DNA from: an uncultured Lachnospiraceae bacterium
Lineage (GTDB): Bacteria > Bacillota > Clostridia > Lachnospirales > Lachnospiraceae
Length of the DNA stretch: 64,000 bases
Assembly (NCBI GenBank): GCA_900316855.1
Contig: ONEK01000002.1
Span: 45,788-109,787 of the forward strand
Direction of reading: 5' to 3'
A model generated the notes under the pieces. That model searched no databases and had not been told where the DNA came from. It saw only the letters and a program-made list of their open reading frames with translations. The translations under genes were made by a program, and so were the position numbers. Below are positions 46,429-52,214 of the stretch, one piece after another (within the stretch, counting starts at the first letter, position 1; each line of letters opens with the position of its first letter).

Positions 46429-46551
46429 ATTGGAAAAAATGTTGCTATTGCTGAAATGAGGACTTAAAATGTTAGGAAAAGACAGCAATATTAACAGTTT
46501 TGACTCATTTTTTACGTTTACATGCCTGCTTTTTGCGGCGGAAGGAGAGCT

Positions 46552-47640
46552 ATGGTATCTGCACAGATCGTGAAAACCTGCCTGGAGGAACTGACCTCCA
46601 TTTCCAAGGTGGAGTTCTGCGTCCAGGATCCTTCCGGGGCTCTGTTTTCCATGACCGGCGGCGCTGAAATGACACAGAATGACGTTGTTGCCAGTTTTGC
46701 GTCCTCTTCCGTCGATTCCCAGATCATGGGAAATAAATATCTTCTCAAGATTCAGGAGGAAGATGAGACGGTTTATATCCTGACTGCAATCGGCACCGGG
46801 GATTATACCCTCATGATAGCCAAGATTGCCGTCAGCGAGCTTCGCAACCTGATGACTGCCTATCGGGAGAAATATGACCGCAACAATTTCTTCCAGAATC
46901 TGCTTCTGGATAATCTGCTTCTTGTTGATATTCATAACCGCGCCAGAAAGCTTCACATTAATTTTGCCGTTCCGCGTGCGATTATTCTGGCGGAAATTGA
47001 GTCGGAGTCGGATGCCAGTGCCAGTGACCTTCTGGCAAGTATTTTCACAACCCACAATGGAGACTATCTCACGGAGGTAGATGAGAACAGTGTCATAATC
47101 ATCAAGGCGGTAGAGAACGAGAATGCCTATGATCAGGTTCAGGAGTCTGCCCAGATTGCCGCAGATATGCTGAATACGGAAGCCATGCTGAAGGTTCGCG
47201 TTGCATACGGCACCATTGTTTCCGACCTGAAAAATATCTCCAAATCCTACAAGGAAGCACGCATGGCGATGGATGTGGGGAAGATCTTCTATGCCGAAAG
47301 ACGGGTAATTTCCTACAACGAGCTTGGAATCGGCAGATTGATCTATCAGCTTCCCTCCAACCTCTGCAATGTTTTCATCCAAGAGGTTTTCGGTGAGAAT
47401 ATTCCCTACGATCTTGACAATGAGACCCTGTCGACGATCAATACCTTCTTTGAAAATAATCTGAACGTTTCCGAGACGAGCCGCAAGCTGTTCATTCACA
47501 GGAACACGCTGGTCTATCGGATTGAGAAGCTTCAGAAATCAACGGGGCTCGACATCCGGGTATTCGACGATGCCCTGAAATTCAAGATTGCGCTGATGGT
47601 AATGAACTACCTGAAATATCTGGAGAACAAGGACTACTGA
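46552..47640 (+). CDS. PucR/CdaR-family transcriptional regulator
   Basis: C-terminal FFENNLNVSETSRKLFIHRNTLVYRIEKLQKSTGLD HTH; RBS AAGGAG before ATG 46552. Confidence 0.9.
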   Translation: MVSAQIVKTCLEELTSISKVEFCVQDPSGALFSMTGGAEMTQNDVVASFASSSVDSQIMGNKYLLKIQEEDETVYILTAIGTGDYTLMIAKIAVSELRNLMTAYREKYDRNNFFQNLLLDNLLLVDIHNRARKLHINFAVPRAIILAEIESESDASASDLLASIFTTHNGDYLTEVDENSVIIIKAVENENAYDQVQESAQIAADMLNTEAMLKVRVAYGTIVSDLKNISKSYKEARMAMDVGKIFYAERRVISYNELGIGRLIYQLPSNLCNVFIQEVFGENIPYDLDNETLSTINTFFENNLNVSETSRKLFIHRNTLVYRIEKLQKSTGLDIRVFDDALKFKIALMVMNYLKYLENKDY

Positions 47641-48588
47641 TTACAGGATTCCGGTGCCGTCAAAGGCAGGGATAAAGCTTTTCGAAACTGTGCCTCCCTC
47701 CTGGAGGAAACCGTTTTCAACACCAAGGGATAGGGCGAAGTCCACGACTTCGTCATATTCCTTTTTTGTTACTGTGCGCTGCAGCAGCGGGTCCTGATCT
47801 TTTGTCTGCGGCATCGGTGTGTACTGATTCATGATGCTGACAAAGATCCGGTCATGATAGGTTTCATACAGGTACCGCAGTATTTTTCTGGAATCCTCCG
47901 TGTGCCCGGGCATGACCATGTGCCGGACAATGACCCCGCGGACCATCAGCGGATCATCCCTGTCATTTTTCTCATCCAGGGAGTGCGACCCGTCGGCAAA
48001 GCAGGGTTCCGGACATTGCCGGACCATTTCGCGGATTGCAGATGAGGCATATTCAAAATAGTCTGCGGCACCGCAGTATCTGCGGGAAAGATCCGGGGAA
48101 AAAAACTTCAGATCCGGAAGATAAATGTCAATGAGCCCGTCCAGACAGCGGATTGCCTCGGCCTTCTCATACGAGGAAGTGTTGTAGACAACGGGAATTT
48201 GTAAGCCCCTGGCCTTTGCAGTTTCGAGGGCGGGAATCAGAAGGGGAAGAAAGTGGGAACCCGTCACAAGGTTGATGTTACCGGCACCCTCCTCCATCAG
48301 ACGCAGGAAAATATCCGCAAGCCGGTCCGGTGTGATCTCAACGCCGTGATTGCCGTCCTCGCCCAGTGATATATCATAATTCTGACAGAATACACAGCCG
48401 AGATTACAGCCTGTGAAAAACACCGCACCGGAGCCTTTTGTACCGCTGATGCAGGGTTCCTCATAATAGAGCTTTGCAGCCCTTGCGGCGTGCAGGGAAG
48501 CACCTTCCCGGCAGAACCCCGTTTTCCCGTGCGCGCGGTCTGCATGACATTCACGGGGGCACAGGGTGCAATCCGAAAGATCAAACAT
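47641..48588 (-). CDS. PflX-like radical SAM protein
   Basis: CTLCPRECH, FFTGCNLGCVFCQN (CxxxCxxC), NINLVT, YLPDLK, VRHMVMPG, MNQYTP; start set at ATG 48588 because the ORF-track extension runs into the SRP RNA. Confidence 0.88.
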   Translation of the reverse strand: MFDLSDCTLCPRECHADRAHGKTGFCREGASLHAARAAKLYYEEPCISGTKGSGAVFFTGCNLGCVFCQNYDISLGEDGNHGVEITPDRLADIFLRLMEEGAGNINLVTGSHFLPLLIPALETAKARGLQIPVVYNTSSYEKAEAIRCLDGLIDIYLPDLKFFSPDLSRRYCGAADYFEYASSAIREMVRQCPEPCFADGSHSLDEKNDRDDPLMVRGVIVRHMVMPGHTEDSRKILRYLYETYHDRIFVSIMNQYTPMPQTKDQDPLLQRTVTKKEYDEVVDFALSLGVENGFLQEGGTVSKSFIPAFDGTGIL

Positions 48589-48803
48589 AAAAAACCTCTT
48601 TACCAGGATGGGACCCGGGCGCACTGCCGGACTGCCCGCTTTGCCAGGCACCCCTGCGGCACATGAAAGGATCTGCTTAGTGCTGCTTCGTTCCCGATCT
48701 GACACGGTTCGCAGGATTCATTGCGCAGGACCCGAACATCAGCAAGGACGGACCCGGACGGCTGCCCGGGCCCCATTCTGCCAAAGAGGTCTAGACTGTA
48801 ACG
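48589..48803 (-). ncRNA. ffs: Signal recognition particle RNA (ffs/scr)
   Basis: Minus strand has GTTCGGGTCCTGCGCAATG...GAACCGTGTCAGATCGGGAACGAAGCAGCACTAAG...TCATGTGCCGCAGGGGTGCCTGG, matching the B. subtilis scRNA S-domain; long closing helix; own promoter; downstream of tadA. Confidence 0.93.
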
Positions 48804-48808
48804 GCATC

Positions 48809-48837
48809 AGTGTAACTGAAACGTCCGCTTTTTGCAA
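48809..48837 (-). promoter_or_regulatory. Sigma-A promoter of ffs
   Basis: TTGCAA (48837-48832), 17-bp spacer, TACACT (48814-48809). Confidence 0.75.
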
Positions 48838-48866: not shown

Positions 48867-49367
48867 TTAAGACGGATTCTGCCGGCGCAGTCTGCGGAAG
48901 AACTCTTTCAGCAGGGCACTGCATTCGTCCTGCAGTACGCCTGCCGTGATTTCCGACTGATGCATGAGCGCTTCATTGGAAACGATATTCAGAACGGTCC
49001 CTGCACAGCCGGACTTGTCGGAGGGTGCCCCGATCACGACGCGGTCGATGCGGGCCTGCTCGATGGCACCGGCGCACATGGGGCAGGGCTCGAGTGTGCA
49101 GTACAGTGTACAGCCTTCCAGTCTCCAGTCTCCCACTTTCCTGCTGGCGCGGCGGATAGCGGTCATCTCAGCATGGGACAGGGTGGAATGATCTGTGTTG
49201 CGCCGGTTGTATCCCCTGCCGATGACTGCCCCGTCAAAGACGATGACACAGCCGATCGGGACTTCTCCCAGGGCCATGGCCTTTCTTGCCTGTGTCAGTG
49301 CGGCTTTCATGTATTTTTCATCCTCAGACAGGTATTTTCTGCCGGCGGGCTGCATGGAATTTAGCAT
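48867..49367 (-). CDS. tadA: tRNA-specific adenosine-34 deaminase
   Basis: GEVPIGCV, HAE, TLEPCPMCAGA. Confidence 0.95.
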   Translation of the reverse strand: MLNSMQPAGRKYLSEDEKYMKAALTQARKAMALGEVPIGCVIVFDGAVIGRGYNRRNTDHSTLSHAEMTAIRRASRKVGDWRLEGCTLYCTLEPCPMCAGAIEQARIDRVVIGAPSDKSGCAGTVLNIVSNEALMHQSEITAGVLQDECSALLKEFFRRLRRQNPS

Positions 49368-49446: not shown

Positions 49447-49582
49447 CAGTTATTCAAATCCTCGACGCTCCGGTTTTCCTTTTACGGAAAGGAACGAATG
49501 CCGTTCGCGGCGGGATTCCTGCACAGTATAGCGAAGGGAGGAACGGGATGCAACACCTCTCTGCGCGGGTTTGGAGGCAGTC

Positions 49583-50020
49583 ATGAAAATTTCAACCAAA
49601 GGTCGTTACGCGCTGCGCCTGATGCTGGATCTGGCACTGCATGATACCGGGGAGTTCATTTCCCTCAAAGATATTTCCCAAAGACAGGGAATTACTGTAA
49701 AATATCTGGAGCAGATTGTGACCGTTCTGTCCAAGGCCGGCTTTGTCCGTTCCCAGCGCGGCAACAACGGGGGTTATCGTCTTTCGCGTACGCCGGACCA
49801 GTACACAACGGGGGATATTCTGCGCGTGATGGAGGGCTCCCTGCAGCCGATCGCGTGCCTGGATGACGACGTCAATGTCTGCCCCATGAGCGGACAGTGC
49901 ACGGTTCTGCCATTCTGGAAGAATCTTTCGAAGGTAATCAATGATTACGTGGATTCCGTAACGCTGCAGGACCTCAAGGATCAGGCGCTTCAGATGTCTG
50001 CAAATGACTTCGTGATATAG
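49583..50020 (+). CDS. Rrf2-family regulator (IscR/CymR-like)
   Basis: MKISTKGRYALR, ISQRQGITVKYLEQI, SQRGNNGGY, three Cys (C92, C99, C105). Confidence 0.92.
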   Translation: MKISTKGRYALRLMLDLALHDTGEFISLKDISQRQGITVKYLEQIVTVLSKAGFVRSQRGNNGGYRLSRTPDQYTTGDILRVMEGSLQPIACLDDDVNVCPMSGQCTVLPFWKNLSKVINDYVDSVTLQDLKDQALQMSANDFVI

Positions 50021-50031
50021 AAAGGATCAAT

Positions 50032-50784
50032 ATGTCAACATTATTAGAGGTACAGAATCTCTCGGCTGCCATTGAGGAAGGTGAGCTGCTGCATCATATC
50101 AGCCTGAAGATCAATCCCGGGGAAACGCATGTCCTGATGGGTCCGAATGGTGCCGGAAAGTCCACGTTTGGTTATACGCTGATGGGCAGCCCGAATTATA
50201 AGGTCACAGGAGGAAGAATTCTGTTCGAGGGAGAGGATATCACCCATCTGCCTGCGGACCGGCGGGCATCCAGGGGAATGTTTCTGTCCTTCCAGAATCC
50301 GCTGGAGGTACCGGGACTTTCACTGGAGGAATTCCTGCGCAATGCCATCCGTCAGCAGACCGGAAAGCCGTTGAAAATTTTCCAGTTCAAGAAGCAGCTT
50401 GAGTCCACTATGCAGCTGCTGCAGATGGACGAGTCCTATGCGGATCGTGATCTGAATGTCGGCTTTTCCGGAGGTGAGAAGAAGAAGGCGGAAATCCTGC
50501 AGCTTCTGATGCTGAATCCGAAGCTGGCCATTCTCGATGAAACAGACTCCGGACTTGATGTCGATGCGGTCCGGACAGTATCCCGGGGCGTGGAGGAATA
50601 CCAGAAACAGCGAAACGGCGCTCTCCTTGTCATCACGCACTCCACACGGATTCTCGAGTCCCTGAAGGTGGATTATACGCATATCCTCGTAAAGGGCAGG
50701 CTGATCGTCACCGGCGGGCCGGAACTGGTGGAAGAGATCAACGAGCATGGATTTGAAAAATACATCGAAGCCGGGCAGCAGTAA
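50032..50784 (+). CDS. sufC: Fe-S cluster assembly ATPase SufC
   Basis: GPNGAGKST, FLSFQNP, GFSGGEKKK, ILDETDSGLD, ITH. Confidence 0.96.
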   Translation: MSTLLEVQNLSAAIEEGELLHHISLKINPGETHVLMGPNGAGKSTFGYTLMGSPNYKVTGGRILFEGEDITHLPADRRASRGMFLSFQNPLEVPGLSLEEFLRNAIRQQTGKPLKIFQFKKQLESTMQLLQMDESYADRDLNVGFSGGEKKKAEILQLLMLNPKLAILDETDSGLDVDAVRTVSRGVEEYQKQRNGALLVITHSTRILESLKVDYTHILVKGRLIVTGGPELVEEINEHGFEKYIEAGQQ

Positions 50785-50813
50785 ATTCTGCCGCGGATGT
50801 AAAAGAGGTTATT

Positions 50814-52214
50814 ATGGCAAAACAGAAAATACAGGATGTCGACAGAAGCCTGTATGATTTCAGGGACGATGAATCCCGGGGCTTTTACCGGATGGAGGAG
50901 GGCCTGACGGAGGAAATCGTCCTGCAGATTTCCAGGGAGAAGAAGGATCCGGACTGGATGCGGGATTTCCGTCTGAAGTGCCTGGATCTGTATAACCGCA
51001 TGGAGGTCCCTGACTGGGGGCCTTCTATTGACGGTCTTGATATGGACCGCATCACGAATTACGTCCGGTCACGTTCCGAAATGAAGGGCGACTGGAACGA
51101 AGTCCCGGATGAGATCAAGAATACCTTTGAGAAGCTGGGCATTCCGCAGGCGGAGAGGGAATCCCTCGCGGGCGTGGGGGCCCAGTATGATTCCGAGCTG
51201 GTCTATCACAATCTTCAGAAGGAGGTGGCGGACCAGGGCGTTATCTACATCGGGTTTGAGGAAGCGGTCACAGGCAGATATTCCGATATGGTGAAGGAAT
51301 ATTTCATGAAGCTTGTTCCTCCGACCGATCATAAATTTGCTGCGCTGCACGGTGCGGTCTGGAGCGGAGGCTCCTTTGTCTATGTCCCGAAGGGAGTACA
51401 TGTGGCAATTCCGCTTCAGTCCTATTTTCGTCTGAATGCCCGCGGCGCAGGCCAGTTTGAGCACACACTGATTATTGTGGACGAAGGCGCGGATGTACAT
51501 TTTATCGAGGGCTGCTCTGCACCCAAATACAATGTCGCGAATCTGCATGCCGGCTGTGTTGAGCTGTATGTGAAGAGAAATGCCCGACTCCGCTATTCCA
51601 CGATCGAGAACTGGTCCAAAAACATGTACAACCTCAACACCAAGCGCGCCCTGGTGGAAGAAGGCGGTACCATGGAATGGGTTTCCGGAAGCTTCGGCTC
51701 CCATGTGTCTTACCTGTACCCTACAACCATTCTGAAGGGCGATCATTCCCACTGCGAATTTACGGGAATTACGTTTGCGGGGAAAGGACAGAACCTGGAC
51801 ACCGGCGCCAAGATGATTCATATCGGCAGGGACACCTCTTCCTATATCAATACGAAGAGTATCAGCAAGGATGGAGGCATTTCCACGTACCGTTCCAGTG
51901 TGGAAATCCGTTCTACCGCCAGGCGCGCAAAGGCGTCGGTCGACTGTGCTTCGCTCATGCTGGATGACATTTCCCGATCGGACACCATTCCCGCCATGGA
52001 TGTGAGGACACCGGATGCGGATGTCGGACATGAAGCGAAGATCGGACGCATATCCGATGAAGCTGTCTTCTATCTGATGAGCCGGGGTATCACGGAGGCG
52101 GATGCACGTGCGATGATCGTTTCCGGGTTTGCGGATCCGGTTTCCAAGGAACTGCCTCTGGAATATGCCGCCGAGATGAATAACCTCATCAAACTGGAAA
52201 TGGAGGGAATGTGA
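50814..52214 (+). CDS. sufB: Fe-S cluster assembly protein SufB
   Basis: AQYDSE, AVWSGGSF, GQFEHTLI, EGCSAP, HEAKIG, FYLMSRG. Confidence 0.96.
   Translation: MAKQKIQDVDRSLYDFRDDESRGFYRMEEGLTEEIVLQISREKKDPDWMRDFRLKCLDLYNRMEVPDWGPSIDGLDMDRITNYVRSRSEMKGDWNEVPDEIKNTFEKLGIPQAERESLAGVGAQYDSELVYHNLQKEVADQGVIYIGFEEAVTGRYSDMVKEYFMKLVPPTDHKFAALHGAVWSGGSFVYVPKGVHVAIPLQSYFRLNARGAGQFEHTLIIVDEGADVHFIEGCSAPKYNVANLHAGCVELYVKRNARLRYSTIENWSKNMYNLNTKRALVEEGGTMEWVSGSFGSHVSYLYPTTILKGDHSHCEFTGITFAGKGQNLDTGAKMIHIGRDTSSYINTKSISKDGGISTYRSSVEIRSTARRAKASVDCASLMLDDISRSDTIPAMDVRTPDADVGHEAKIGRISDEAVFYLMSRGITEADARAMIVSGFADPVSKELPLEYAAEMNNLIKLEMEGM

Follow-up and report, generated by a model that had tools for sequence, protein, structure and literature searches.

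Genes and promoters at the ffs locus

The window (the whole stretch of 64,000 nucleotides that was analysed) carries on its minus strand tadA, encoding tRNA adenosine-34 deaminase (48867–49367; NCBIfam NF008113, 159.7 bits against a cut-off of 150, and a Pfam match), then ffs, encoding the SRP RNA (48589–48802), and then a gene for a radical SAM protein of 315 aa (rSAM; 47641–48588), and these three form one compact unit. The order tadA then SRP RNA gene is the same as that at the Bacillus subtilis scr locus, which we take to be the Firmicute order, and no terminator-like site was found from the tadA stop to ffs. On the plus strand a convergent gene for a PucR/CdaR-type regulator (46522–47640; PF13556 and PF17853), a neighbour also present in relatives, ends with a stop codon abutting that of rSAM. 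The initial annotation had contrasted the locus with model organisms in which dnaX follows the SRP RNA gene, and dnaX does indeed lie elsewhere here, on contig C7.

The SRP RNA matched Rfam family RF01854 in cmscan with 116.6 bits (gathering score 60, E = 4.6e-18), a score above the family threshold that places it among the bacterial SRP RNAs of Rfam clan CL00003. The core GUCAGAUCGGGAACGAAGCAGCACUAAGC was aligned to RF01854 with high posterior probability, and the conserved domain IV core GTCAGATCGGGAACGAAGCAGCACTAAGC (48675–48703, minus strand), placed by the cmscan alignment, is nearly invariant in a separate alignment of nine SRP RNAs. The gene is single copy in the genome. Its product is of the Alu-less form with an elongated helix 5, about 214 nt long including a tail of six U residues (U6), and has a fold energy of −103.2 kcal/mol (z = −4.9). 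In the cmscan alignment the Alu domain (helices 2–4) of the large, Bacillus-type SRP RNA is not formed, helix 4 being deleted and helix 3 mispaired. The full-length Rfam alignment (48833–48589), with the Alu domain that it implies, was rejected because relatives in the genus mostly match the helix-5/domain-IV part alone (RF01854 model positions about 59–249) and because the extra 5′ bases are promoter, coinciding with a TTGCAA-17-TACACT motif placed by homology. Helices were found from promoter-defined start sites, as untranscribed promoter bases gave spurious pairings. The 5′ limit of 48803 first given for the RNA agrees with the promoter-inferred start at about 48802 better than does the 48833 forced by Rfam.

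This promoter, P1 (48809–48837, minus strand), has its −35 element TTGCAA at 48837–48832 and, after a 17-nt spacer, its −10 element TACACT at 48814–48809. It takes the position of the near-consensus TTGACA-17-TATA[CG]T promoters that stand upstream of ffs in nearly all loci of the relatives (mean score 10.8), and is the weakest of the set with matches at 8 of 12 positions.

The rSAM protein belongs to the radical SAM superfamily (PF04055, 47 bits against a cut-off of 29.5), with C61, C65 and C68 of the CxxxCxxC cluster motif invariant. It combines a fold like that of the PFL activases with an extra N-terminal four-Cys motif, CxxCPRxC...C. The AlphaFold model (pLDDT 89) matched radical SAM folds, the top PDB match being the pyruvate formate-lyase activating enzyme, PFL-AE (3C8F), where a TM-score of 0.76 on the target goes with 14% identity, a likeness at the level of the fold only; in the PFL-AE equivalog family TIGR02493 the protein scored 23.4 bits against a cut-off of 231.75. 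A sequence search of solved structures gave no match and a literature search for ‘PflX’ together with ‘radical SAM’ found nothing; ‘PflX-like’ would seem a fair nickname. A tie to the neighbouring pair of a cluster-less radical SAM paralogue and a TetR gene was considered and rejected, as the proteins are unrelated (BLASTP E = 2.6).

The junction between ffs and rSAM

Across the junction the minus strand reads ...CATCCTGGTAAAGAGGTTTTTT-ATG, with GAGG at 48598–48595 (as part of AAAGAGG at 48601–48595), the U-run at 48594–48589 and the ATG at 48588–48586, so that the start codon of rSAM begins with the base right after U6 and the spacing is zero. The initial annotation had claimed that the ribosome-binding site (RBS) and spacer are part of the non-coding RNA, and this was borne out: GAGG and U6 are the 3′ strand and the tail of the helix that closes the SRP RNA. 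The strands of this terminal helix, placed by minimum-energy folds, duplex energies and covariation, lie at 48764–48792 (5′ strand) and 48592–48620 (3′ strand, containing the Shine–Dalgarno (SD) sequence). As first reported, the 5′ partner AGACCTCTTTGGCAGAATG at 48792–48774 makes standard pairs at 17 of 19 positions, the mismatches being G48781·G48603 and A48777·C48607. In the minimum-energy fold the 11 terminal pairs are contiguous (48792–48782 with 48592–48602), and it is this part of the 5′ strand, AGACCUCUUUG, that pairs with the RBS; the 11 bp have a duplex energy of −11.8 kcal/mol, and the terminal segment of 29 nt one of −49.5 kcal/mol. The helix covaries among relatives: RNAalifold on nine Alu-less SRP RNAs gave compensatory changes in 29 of 56 pairs, the terminal helix included. 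The anti-SD was judged by empirical RBSs within the window, among them that of SufB, which is of the same style (aaaagaggttattATG); the 16S 3′-end pattern, sought as confirmation of the anti-SD, was not found in the assembly.

The U6 run (48589–48594) is both a terminator-like tail to the SRP RNA and the spacer from SD to ATG. A stem directly followed by U6 is present, and the same layout occurs in most relatives. The stem of this putative terminator closes a 200-nt structure, unlike the classical short hairpin, and a standard scan gave no call. As read from the sequence, the rSAM gene is left no room for a promoter or a free-standing RBS of its own.

We regard the start codon as secure because nine residues from C7 to C26 (C7, C10, P11, R12, C14, R18, G21, G24 and C26) do not vary among 26 homologues; N-termini of homologues align from FDLSxC, and there is no in-frame start between M1 and C7. 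An in-frame GTG upstream, at 48705 (354-aa ORF), was rejected as it lies inside the SRP core and has no SD, and as the homologues begin near FDLSxC. The initial annotation had also raised the prospect of a downstream start, which was checked and not found to hold. It is very unlikely that the start is wrong in this direction or that the zero spacing is a misassembly. A 260-aa product (P0003) does exist in the protein database and an independent contig (L114) diverges within the gene; P0003 is, however, encoded by a gene that is truncated where its contig ends, 80 nt upstream of the GTG, which led us to reject the start taken from it, and any downstream start would remove the invariant C7–C26 motif. 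As to the assembly, the contig that holds the window is 170 kb long and the genome is 99.9% complete; the 53 foreign bases of L114 are absent from this genome.

Comparison with relatives puts the junction in context. Of the 17 loci of the genus, 15 have the rSAM gene directly 3′ of ffs, as have 44 of the 80 closest genome matches; when the family was sampled evenly at one genome per genus, 66 genomes bore the gene and 6 of them, the window's included, had this order, so that the order was found in 5 of 65 other genera, and the rSAM gene is missing from 55 of the family's 121 genera. In most loci a U-run of 3–7 directly follows the terminal helix, and rSAM mostly lies 7–60 nt past it with an RBS of its own. 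Where the SRP RNA is shortened (L029 and L111–L113) a separate hairpin and U7 stand at the same place, which argues that a terminator ahead of rSAM is maintained. The distance from U-run to start is graded in the relatives (0, 7, 13 and at least 17 nt), and zero spacing with full overlap occurs in this genome only; metagenome scans and a genome scan for the junction in other strains found none. Conservation of the overlap, which the initial annotation had proposed as a check, thus proved to be of two parts: the packing of ffs against rSAM is conserved in relatives whereas the zero-spacing overlap is not. The arrangement is not an isolated oddity, and we consider it confirmed that the overlap is real and marks the far end, reached in one genome alone, of a packing that the relatives share. 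The sister lineage NK3A20 (L031) is a cultured, named isolate rather than a metagenome bin.

Supply and translation of the rSAM message

Neither the 7–40 nt spacers of the relatives nor the segment from SRP core to start codon in the window and its short-spacer relatives held a promoter scoring better than shuffled sequence (7.46 against 7.64 for the latter), which is why we rejected a promoter in the latter segment. The relatives, with their promoterless spacers, suggest that read-through of the ffs terminator is what normally supplies the gene with RNA, much as was first proposed. The explanation that we tentatively favour, as the most likely one for this locus, is that rSAM is transcribed by such read-through and that its translation is clamped. 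As sequence and comparison indicate, the SRP RNA is made from P1 and ends where its covarying terminal helix is followed by U6, and helix and U6 together may act as a leaky intrinsic terminator; rSAM would receive RNA only when polymerase reads through, as the relatives appear to work, and in the read-through RNA the helix would clamp the RBS and keep translation very low. The low level is predicted from the cost of opening the RBS: opening positions −14 to +6 is computed to cost 17.1 kcal/mol in RNA from the P1 start and 5.8 kcal/mol once the 5′ strand is missing from the mRNA. In both minimum-energy and centroid folds the SD is paired, the penalty depends on the 5′ strand, and the opening cost in the window is the highest among 56 loci. 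NK3A20, with its ATG 7 nt past the U-run, is intermediate (11.1 against 3.7 kcal/mol).

A penalty of 11 kcal/mol would nearly silence rSAM at equilibrium, yet its reading frame is intact and its terminal branch not unusually long, so that there must be some way of escape. A rise in translation would require that the 5′ strand pairs late, is displaced or is cut off, for example by RNase III or RNase Y, the genes for both of which are in the genome; in B. subtilis RNase III and RNase J1 cleave the precursor of the SRP RNA in its terminal stem (PMC1935012). In prefix folds the 5′ strand lies in a non-native 5′ hairpin at most transcript lengths from 80 to 180 nt, which is similar to a refolding described for the SRP RNA of E. 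coli (bioRxiv 10.1101/379222). The net effect would be to turn a very strong housekeeping promoter into a mere trickle of enzyme. Against read-through with a clamp count, besides the size of the penalty, the occurrence of the overlap in a single genome and the non-classical, long-range terminator helix. In an extension of the same scheme that we think improbable, the folding of the SRP RNA would be a gate on the same transcript, with enzyme output reporting SRP RNA folding or assembly: only those nascent RNAs whose terminal helix is still open at U6, perhaps because the 5′ strand has not yet left its transient hairpin or because SRP assembly lags, would evade termination and briefly expose the RBS. 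A related possibility is that 3′-end processing of the SRP RNA makes a translatable 5′ end, of which the U-run-abutting ATG in 9 of 55 loci may be a trace.

The main rival, which we hold to be rather unlikely, is that the productive rSAM mRNA starts from a weak extended −10 promoter inside ffs while P1 serves the SRP RNA. The initial annotation had foreseen an internal promoter giving an mRNA without the 5′ helix strand, and what can be added is a concrete candidate, P2 (48775–48802, minus strand; GTTACA-16-TGgCAGAAT), with −35 GTTACA at 48802–48797, a 16-nt spacer, TG at 48783–48782, −10 CAGAAT at 48780–48775 and a predicted start at about 48771–48765. As P2 RNA would lack the 5′ strand, U6 would have no closed helix before it, and little termination and an open RBS are predicted; the computed opening cost falls from 17.1 to 3.7–4.2 kcal/mol. 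This would be a simpler route than escape from a clamp, and to that extent it counts against the explanation we prefer. P2 scores 9 and P1 8.5, and they are the sole two candidates of at least 7.5 in the 295 nt from the tadA stop to the rSAM start, although shuffles of this region score at least 9 in 8% of cases, and a standard promoter scan did not call P2. The mismatch A48777·C48607 sits at position 4 of its −10 element, where A is the consensus base, and CAGAAT lies in a lengthening of the helix specific to the window (RNA of 201 against 192 nt), but the hexamers match at 8 of 12 positions only, with C rather than T at −12, and the −35 element overlaps the P1 start site, so that the two promoters would interfere. 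Among 54 loci a P2-like site of at least 8.5 in the transcribed 5′ part of ffs was found in the window only and, weakly, in L035; it is absent from NK3A20, where occlusion is partial, and from L021, where an in-frame abutting ATG is possible.

It is also conceivable, if decidedly less probable, that the junction is a neutral or harmful compaction, in which a recent deletion of the spacer has left the gene nearly silent and heading for loss and the complementarity merely reflects selection to keep the terminal helix and terminator of the SRP RNA. The occurrence in one genome, the very strong predicted clamp and the absence of rSAM in so many genera, by which it must be dispensable in many lineages, would all suit this, yet the reading frame is intact with every invariant residue of the family kept, and the terminal branch of rSAM is of ordinary length (0.24). 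The RBS, moreover, resembles that of SufB in having a canonical GAGG and a spacer of 6 nt, and the match of 11 contiguous pairs between 5′ strand and RBS indicates co-adaptation after the fusion and not a very recent accident. More doubtful still is a leaderless route, with translation of an mRNA whose 5′ end is A48588 itself, made either when the SRP precursor is cut at the end of U6 or by initiation from TGgTAAAGA (48604–48596). An ATG abuts the U-run in the 9 of 55 ffs-to-rSAM loci and in none of 17 control SRP RNAs, but this trait is scattered on the tree (8 changes) and in most of the loci opens just a short upstream reading frame; TGgTAAAGA does lie 8 nt upstream of the ATG, but without the near-invariant T at −7 it can be only a minor rival as an extended −10 element. 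A cleaved end carries a 5′ monophosphate, which is a poor substrate for the leaderless model in Firmicutes and also speaks against this route.

Known systems and significance

Occlusion of an RBS by a distant segment has parallels in the E. coli adhE mRNA, in which it is reportedly relieved by RNase III, and in the hok mRNA, which is subject to fold-back inhibition. In both the initiation region is paired with a 5′ segment far away, and the RNA must be cleaved or must refold before it is translated, but the occluding sequences are dedicated leader or mRNA sequences and not a functional helix of an essential non-coding RNA. In the E. coli ssrS–ygfA unit a conserved pair is made up of an abundant housekeeping non-coding RNA and the gene of an enzyme with no apparent relation to it, and the mRNA relies on transcription through the RNA gene (PMC2848244). 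There the RNA (6S) and the protein are different ones. To our knowledge the ygfA RBS is not part of the closing helix of 6S RNA. At the scr locus of B. subtilis the 5′ and 3′ ends of the SRP RNA likewise form a long terminal stem, and sequence beyond the stem must be separated, which is there done by RNase III, RNase J1 and RNase PH (PMC1935012); that RNA has an Alu domain and a separate 3′ terminator hairpin (nt 327–354 of the 354-nt precursor) with dnaX downstream, whereas the RNA here lacks an Alu domain, its terminal helix runs straight into the U-run, and the next gene encodes a radical SAM enzyme with its RBS inside the helix. In the Borrelia burgdorferi srp–dnaX–ebfC locus signals of the downstream gene also overlap the 3′ part of srp, but these consist of a promoter situated inside srp close to its end, with a 5′ UTR of 179 nt after it (bioRxiv 10.1101/2022.10.17.512582), and not, as here, the RBS itself at zero spacing.

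Where genes and RNAs may not overlap, as some gene callers and RNA annotators require, either the start codon or the 3′ end of the RNA will be misplaced at such a junction. Essential structured RNAs are usually treated as isolated genes, and here one stretch of 13 bases appears to do triple duty as structural helix of the SRP RNA, transcription terminator and RBS. With its graded relatives, including Lachnospiraceae bacterium NK3A20, the locus offers a natural test bed for how long-range helices end transcription and block ribosomes. If the clamp works as predicted, the locus shows how one of a cell's strongest promoters can be tapped for no more than a small and strictly limited supply of mRNA.

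Organization of the locus and fold of the SRP RNA

The SRP RNA gene (ffs) is read from the minus strand, directly 5' of a radical SAM gene (here rSAM; PF04055) of 315 codons (ATG at 48588, stop at 47641, minus strand), and matches Rfam RF01854 at 116.6 bits (E = 4.6e-18). Upstream on the same strand lies tadA (49367–48867; above the NCBIfam NF008113 cut-off), and about 30 nt past its end comes a promoter-like sequence, P1 (TTGCAA 48837–48832, 17-nt spacer, TACACT 48814–48809). Almost all of about 50 relatives carry TTGACA-17-TATA[CG]T at ffs, and P1 (48809–48837; 8/12 positions) is the weakest match among them. No terminator was found between tadA and ffs, so SRP RNA synthesis may be augmented by read-through from tadA. 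On the upstream side of tadA, an Rrf2 regulator gene together with sufC-sufB (49571–52214) diverges from it, and an Fe-S enzyme gene thus adjoins genes for Fe-S cluster assembly; the Rrf2 gene is the divergent neighbour in the relative L111 too. On the other side rSAM converges with a PucR-type regulator gene (46522–47640), the two stop codons being adjacent (47640/47641) with no intergenic space, and the sole terminator-like hairpin for the plus-strand PucR-type gene lies inside the 3' end of rSAM (47734–47754). In Bacillus dnaX follows the SRP RNA gene; here it is on a different contig of the genome.

Both minimum-energy and centroid folds of 48803–48589 give one long rod (−103.2 kcal/mol, z = −4.9), whose final 11 pairs join 48792–48782 (AGACCUCUUUG) to 48602–48592 (UAAAGAGGUUU). 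The duplex energy is −11.8 kcal/mol for this 11-bp end and −49.5 kcal/mol for the 29-nt terminal segment, and the terminal helix survives extension of the folded RNA by 49 nt of coding sequence. The initial annotation had read the junction as CATCCTGGTAAAGAGGTTTTTT-ATG, with 17 of 19 helix positions paired; both the wording and the count held on re-reading. RNAalifold applied to nine Alu-less SRP RNAs of relatives found compensatory changes in 29 of 56 pairs, the terminal helix included, which marks the helix as a structure under selection rather than a coincidental match.

An Rfam alignment extending to 48833 was rejected, as it is reached only with helix 4 deleted and helix 3 mispaired. Same-genus matches are mostly limited to RF01854 model positions of about 59–249; the full model is covered, at 150–209 bits, in the order's other families and in most other genera of the family. 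Read from the sequence, the extra 5' bases taken in by Rfam are the ffs promoter: the consensus form occurs at the same place in relatives, 0–13 nt ahead of the terminal helix in most loci. The genus matches and the promoter position therefore indicate an Alu-less, long-helix-5 SRP RNA about 214 nt long whose 5' end lies near 48802 (start sites were placed from promoter position only), in agreement with the 5' limit of 48803 proposed earlier. In one incomplete genome (G128, completeness 61%) two SRP RNAs were matched, one of the full large type and one Alu-less and adjoining rSAM, which suggests a mixed bin.

Start codon and identity of the radical SAM protein

The N-termini of homologues align from an FDLSxC motif, and in 26 homologues (60–73% identity) C7, C10, P11, R12, C14, R18, G21, G24 and C26 are invariant, as is the radical SAM triad C61, C65 and C68. 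There is no start codon between M1 and C7, which, with the invariance of C7–C26, argues against the downstream start that the initial annotation had named as one way for its reading to fail. The sole alternative start, an in-frame GTG, sits within the SRP core and was rejected; a 260-aa database entry was set aside as evidence of a later start because a contig end truncates its gene. For this genome, GAGG followed by a 6-nt spacer is an ordinary ribosome-binding site (compare SufB, aaaagaggttattATG). The structure model (pLDDT 89) is closest to the E. coli PFL-activating enzyme (3C8F, TM-score 0.76 on target); the sequence falls far under the equivalog cut-off for PFL-activating enzymes. As a nickname, 'PflX-like' is fair. 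A contig from another metagenome assembly (L114) matches the window at 100% identity between 48450 and 46441 and opens with 53 unrelated bases (L114:1–53), so that it breaks in rSAM codon 46–47; a search of this genome for the 53 bases found none, and the break reflects a chimeric contig end or else a structural variant.

The ffs-rSAM junction in relatives

Of the 17 loci of the genus, 15 have rSAM directly 3' of ffs; the arrangement recurs in 44 of the 80 closest genome hits (mostly labelled Lachnospiraceae). When the family was sampled evenly, at one genome per genus, rSAM was present in 66/121 genomes and stood behind ffs in only six of these 66, the window's included, which makes the linkage a trait of a single subclade. 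Most loci of the subclade have the terminal helix, then a U-run of 3–7, then rSAM. In the window nothing separates the U-run from the start codon (distance 0). The gap measures 7 nt in Lachnospiraceae bacterium NK3A20 (L031) and 6 nt in L102, where a separate terminator hairpin comes first; most remaining loci have 13, 17, 17, 21, 24, 25 and up to 60 nt. The sister group formed by L029, L111, L112 and L113 has an SRP RNA of about 152 nt with no U-run after the terminal helix; here a separate GC-rich hairpin between SRP RNA and rSAM, with U7, replaces the terminator 18–26 nt 5' of the start codon, so that a terminator ahead of rSAM is kept where the SRP RNA is shortened. The enzyme tree places the window as sister (SH-aLRT 90) to a group with NK3A20 and the L029/L111–L113 loci, so that two branches of this sub-lineage show tight or zero spacing. 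No second copy of the zero-spacing junction was found in the collections searched. Of the overlap that was to be looked for in relatives, then, the close packing of ffs and rSAM is common in the subclade, but among the loci compared zero spacing with overlap of the Shine–Dalgarno sequence was seen in the window alone, with L021 as a possible second case.

An ATG abutting the U-run occurs in 9 of 55 ffs-to-rSAM loci (L012, L018, L019, L021, L038, L039, L040, L063 and the window, 48586–48594) and in none of 17 control SRP RNAs without a linked rSAM, and is scattered over the enzyme tree (8 changes). In L012, L018 and L038 it begins a frame of 6–9 codons that stops no more than about 11 nt from the real start; the ATG of L021 shares the rSAM frame. 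Two public bins labelled Acutalibacteraceae and Succinivibrio (L034 and L036) encode at this locus rSAM proteins identical to those of L022 and L015, from genomes of Lachnospiraceae genera, and are, judging by this identity, probably contaminated or mislabelled.

Opening the region from −14 to +6 around the start codon costs 17.1 kcal/mol in the P1 transcript and 5.8 kcal/mol in an mRNA without the 5' strand of the helix (48792–48764). A cruder calculation over 56 loci puts the window highest (16.1), most loci lying at 3.5–10. NK3A20 is intermediate (11.1 versus 3.7 kcal/mol without the 5' strand), and L021, of the same genus and with its in-frame ATG right after U6 (12.3 versus 6.6), may be a second case of the arrangement.

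Possible routes to rSAM expression

Promoter scores for the stretch from SRP core to start codon are no better than in shuffled sequence (mean 7.46 versus 7.64), against an average of 10.8 for the ffs promoters; on the simplest reading, rSAM would be expressed by read-through from the very strong ffs promoter. For the window we tentatively favour, at a little under even chances, such read-through into a message whose ribosome-binding site is clamped by the terminal helix. All readings of function given here are deductions that draw on sequence, on folding energies and on comparison.

An internal promoter yielding an mRNA that lacks the 5' helix strand was the other outcome that the initial annotation had named as contrary to its reading, and a candidate exists: P2 (minus strand; GTTACA 48802–48797, 16-nt spacer, TG 48783–48782, CAGAAT 48780–48775; score 9) is, with P1 (8.5), the only promoter-like site scoring at least 7.5 in the interval from tadA stop to rSAM start. 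Among 54 loci such a site in the transcribed 5' part of ffs is found in the window only, and weakly in L035, and one of the two mismatches in the helix (A48777·C48607) has the A that improves the match of the P2 −10 element. Transcripts from P2, free of the clamp, would need 3.7–4.2 kcal/mol to open the ribosome-binding site, and U6 would no longer be preceded by a closed helix; in Borrelia a dnaX promoter does lie just inside srp (bioRxiv 10.1101/2022.10.17.512582). P2 is, however, a weak site that overlaps the P1 start, and shuffled sequences score at least 9 in 8% of cases; an unclamped rSAM mRNA made from it seems unlikely, if still the strongest of the rivals. That rSAM is nearly silent after a neutral deletion is improbable, a leaderless route to its translation decidedly more so, and an artefact or wrong start codon the least credible of all.

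adhE and hok are familiar examples of a ribosome-binding site that a distant 5' segment masks and that RNase III or refolding releases. No described case of an SRP RNA closing helix and U-tail serving as the next gene's ribosome-binding site was found in the literature on SRP RNA read-through. Joint transcription of a housekeeping RNA and an enzyme gene, as predicted for the window, is known from ssrS-ygfA (PMC2848244). RNase III and RNase J1 act on the terminal stem of the B. subtilis SRP RNA precursor, flanking sequence being taken off it (PMC1935012); RNase III and RNase Y are encoded in the present genome. On the favoured reading of read-through into a clamped message, the helix and U6 would stop most ffs transcripts, thereby setting the 3' end of the SRP RNA, and the fraction reading through would be the rSAM message. 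In prefix folds the 5' strand is held in a non-native 5' hairpin at most transcript lengths of 80–180 nt, a picture reminiscent of the rearrangement that the SRP RNA of E. coli is reported to undergo during transcription (bioRxiv 10.1101/379222). Slow closure of the helix would favour read-through and give a brief slot for ribosome loading, and little rSAM protein would be made unless the 5' strand were missing or late.
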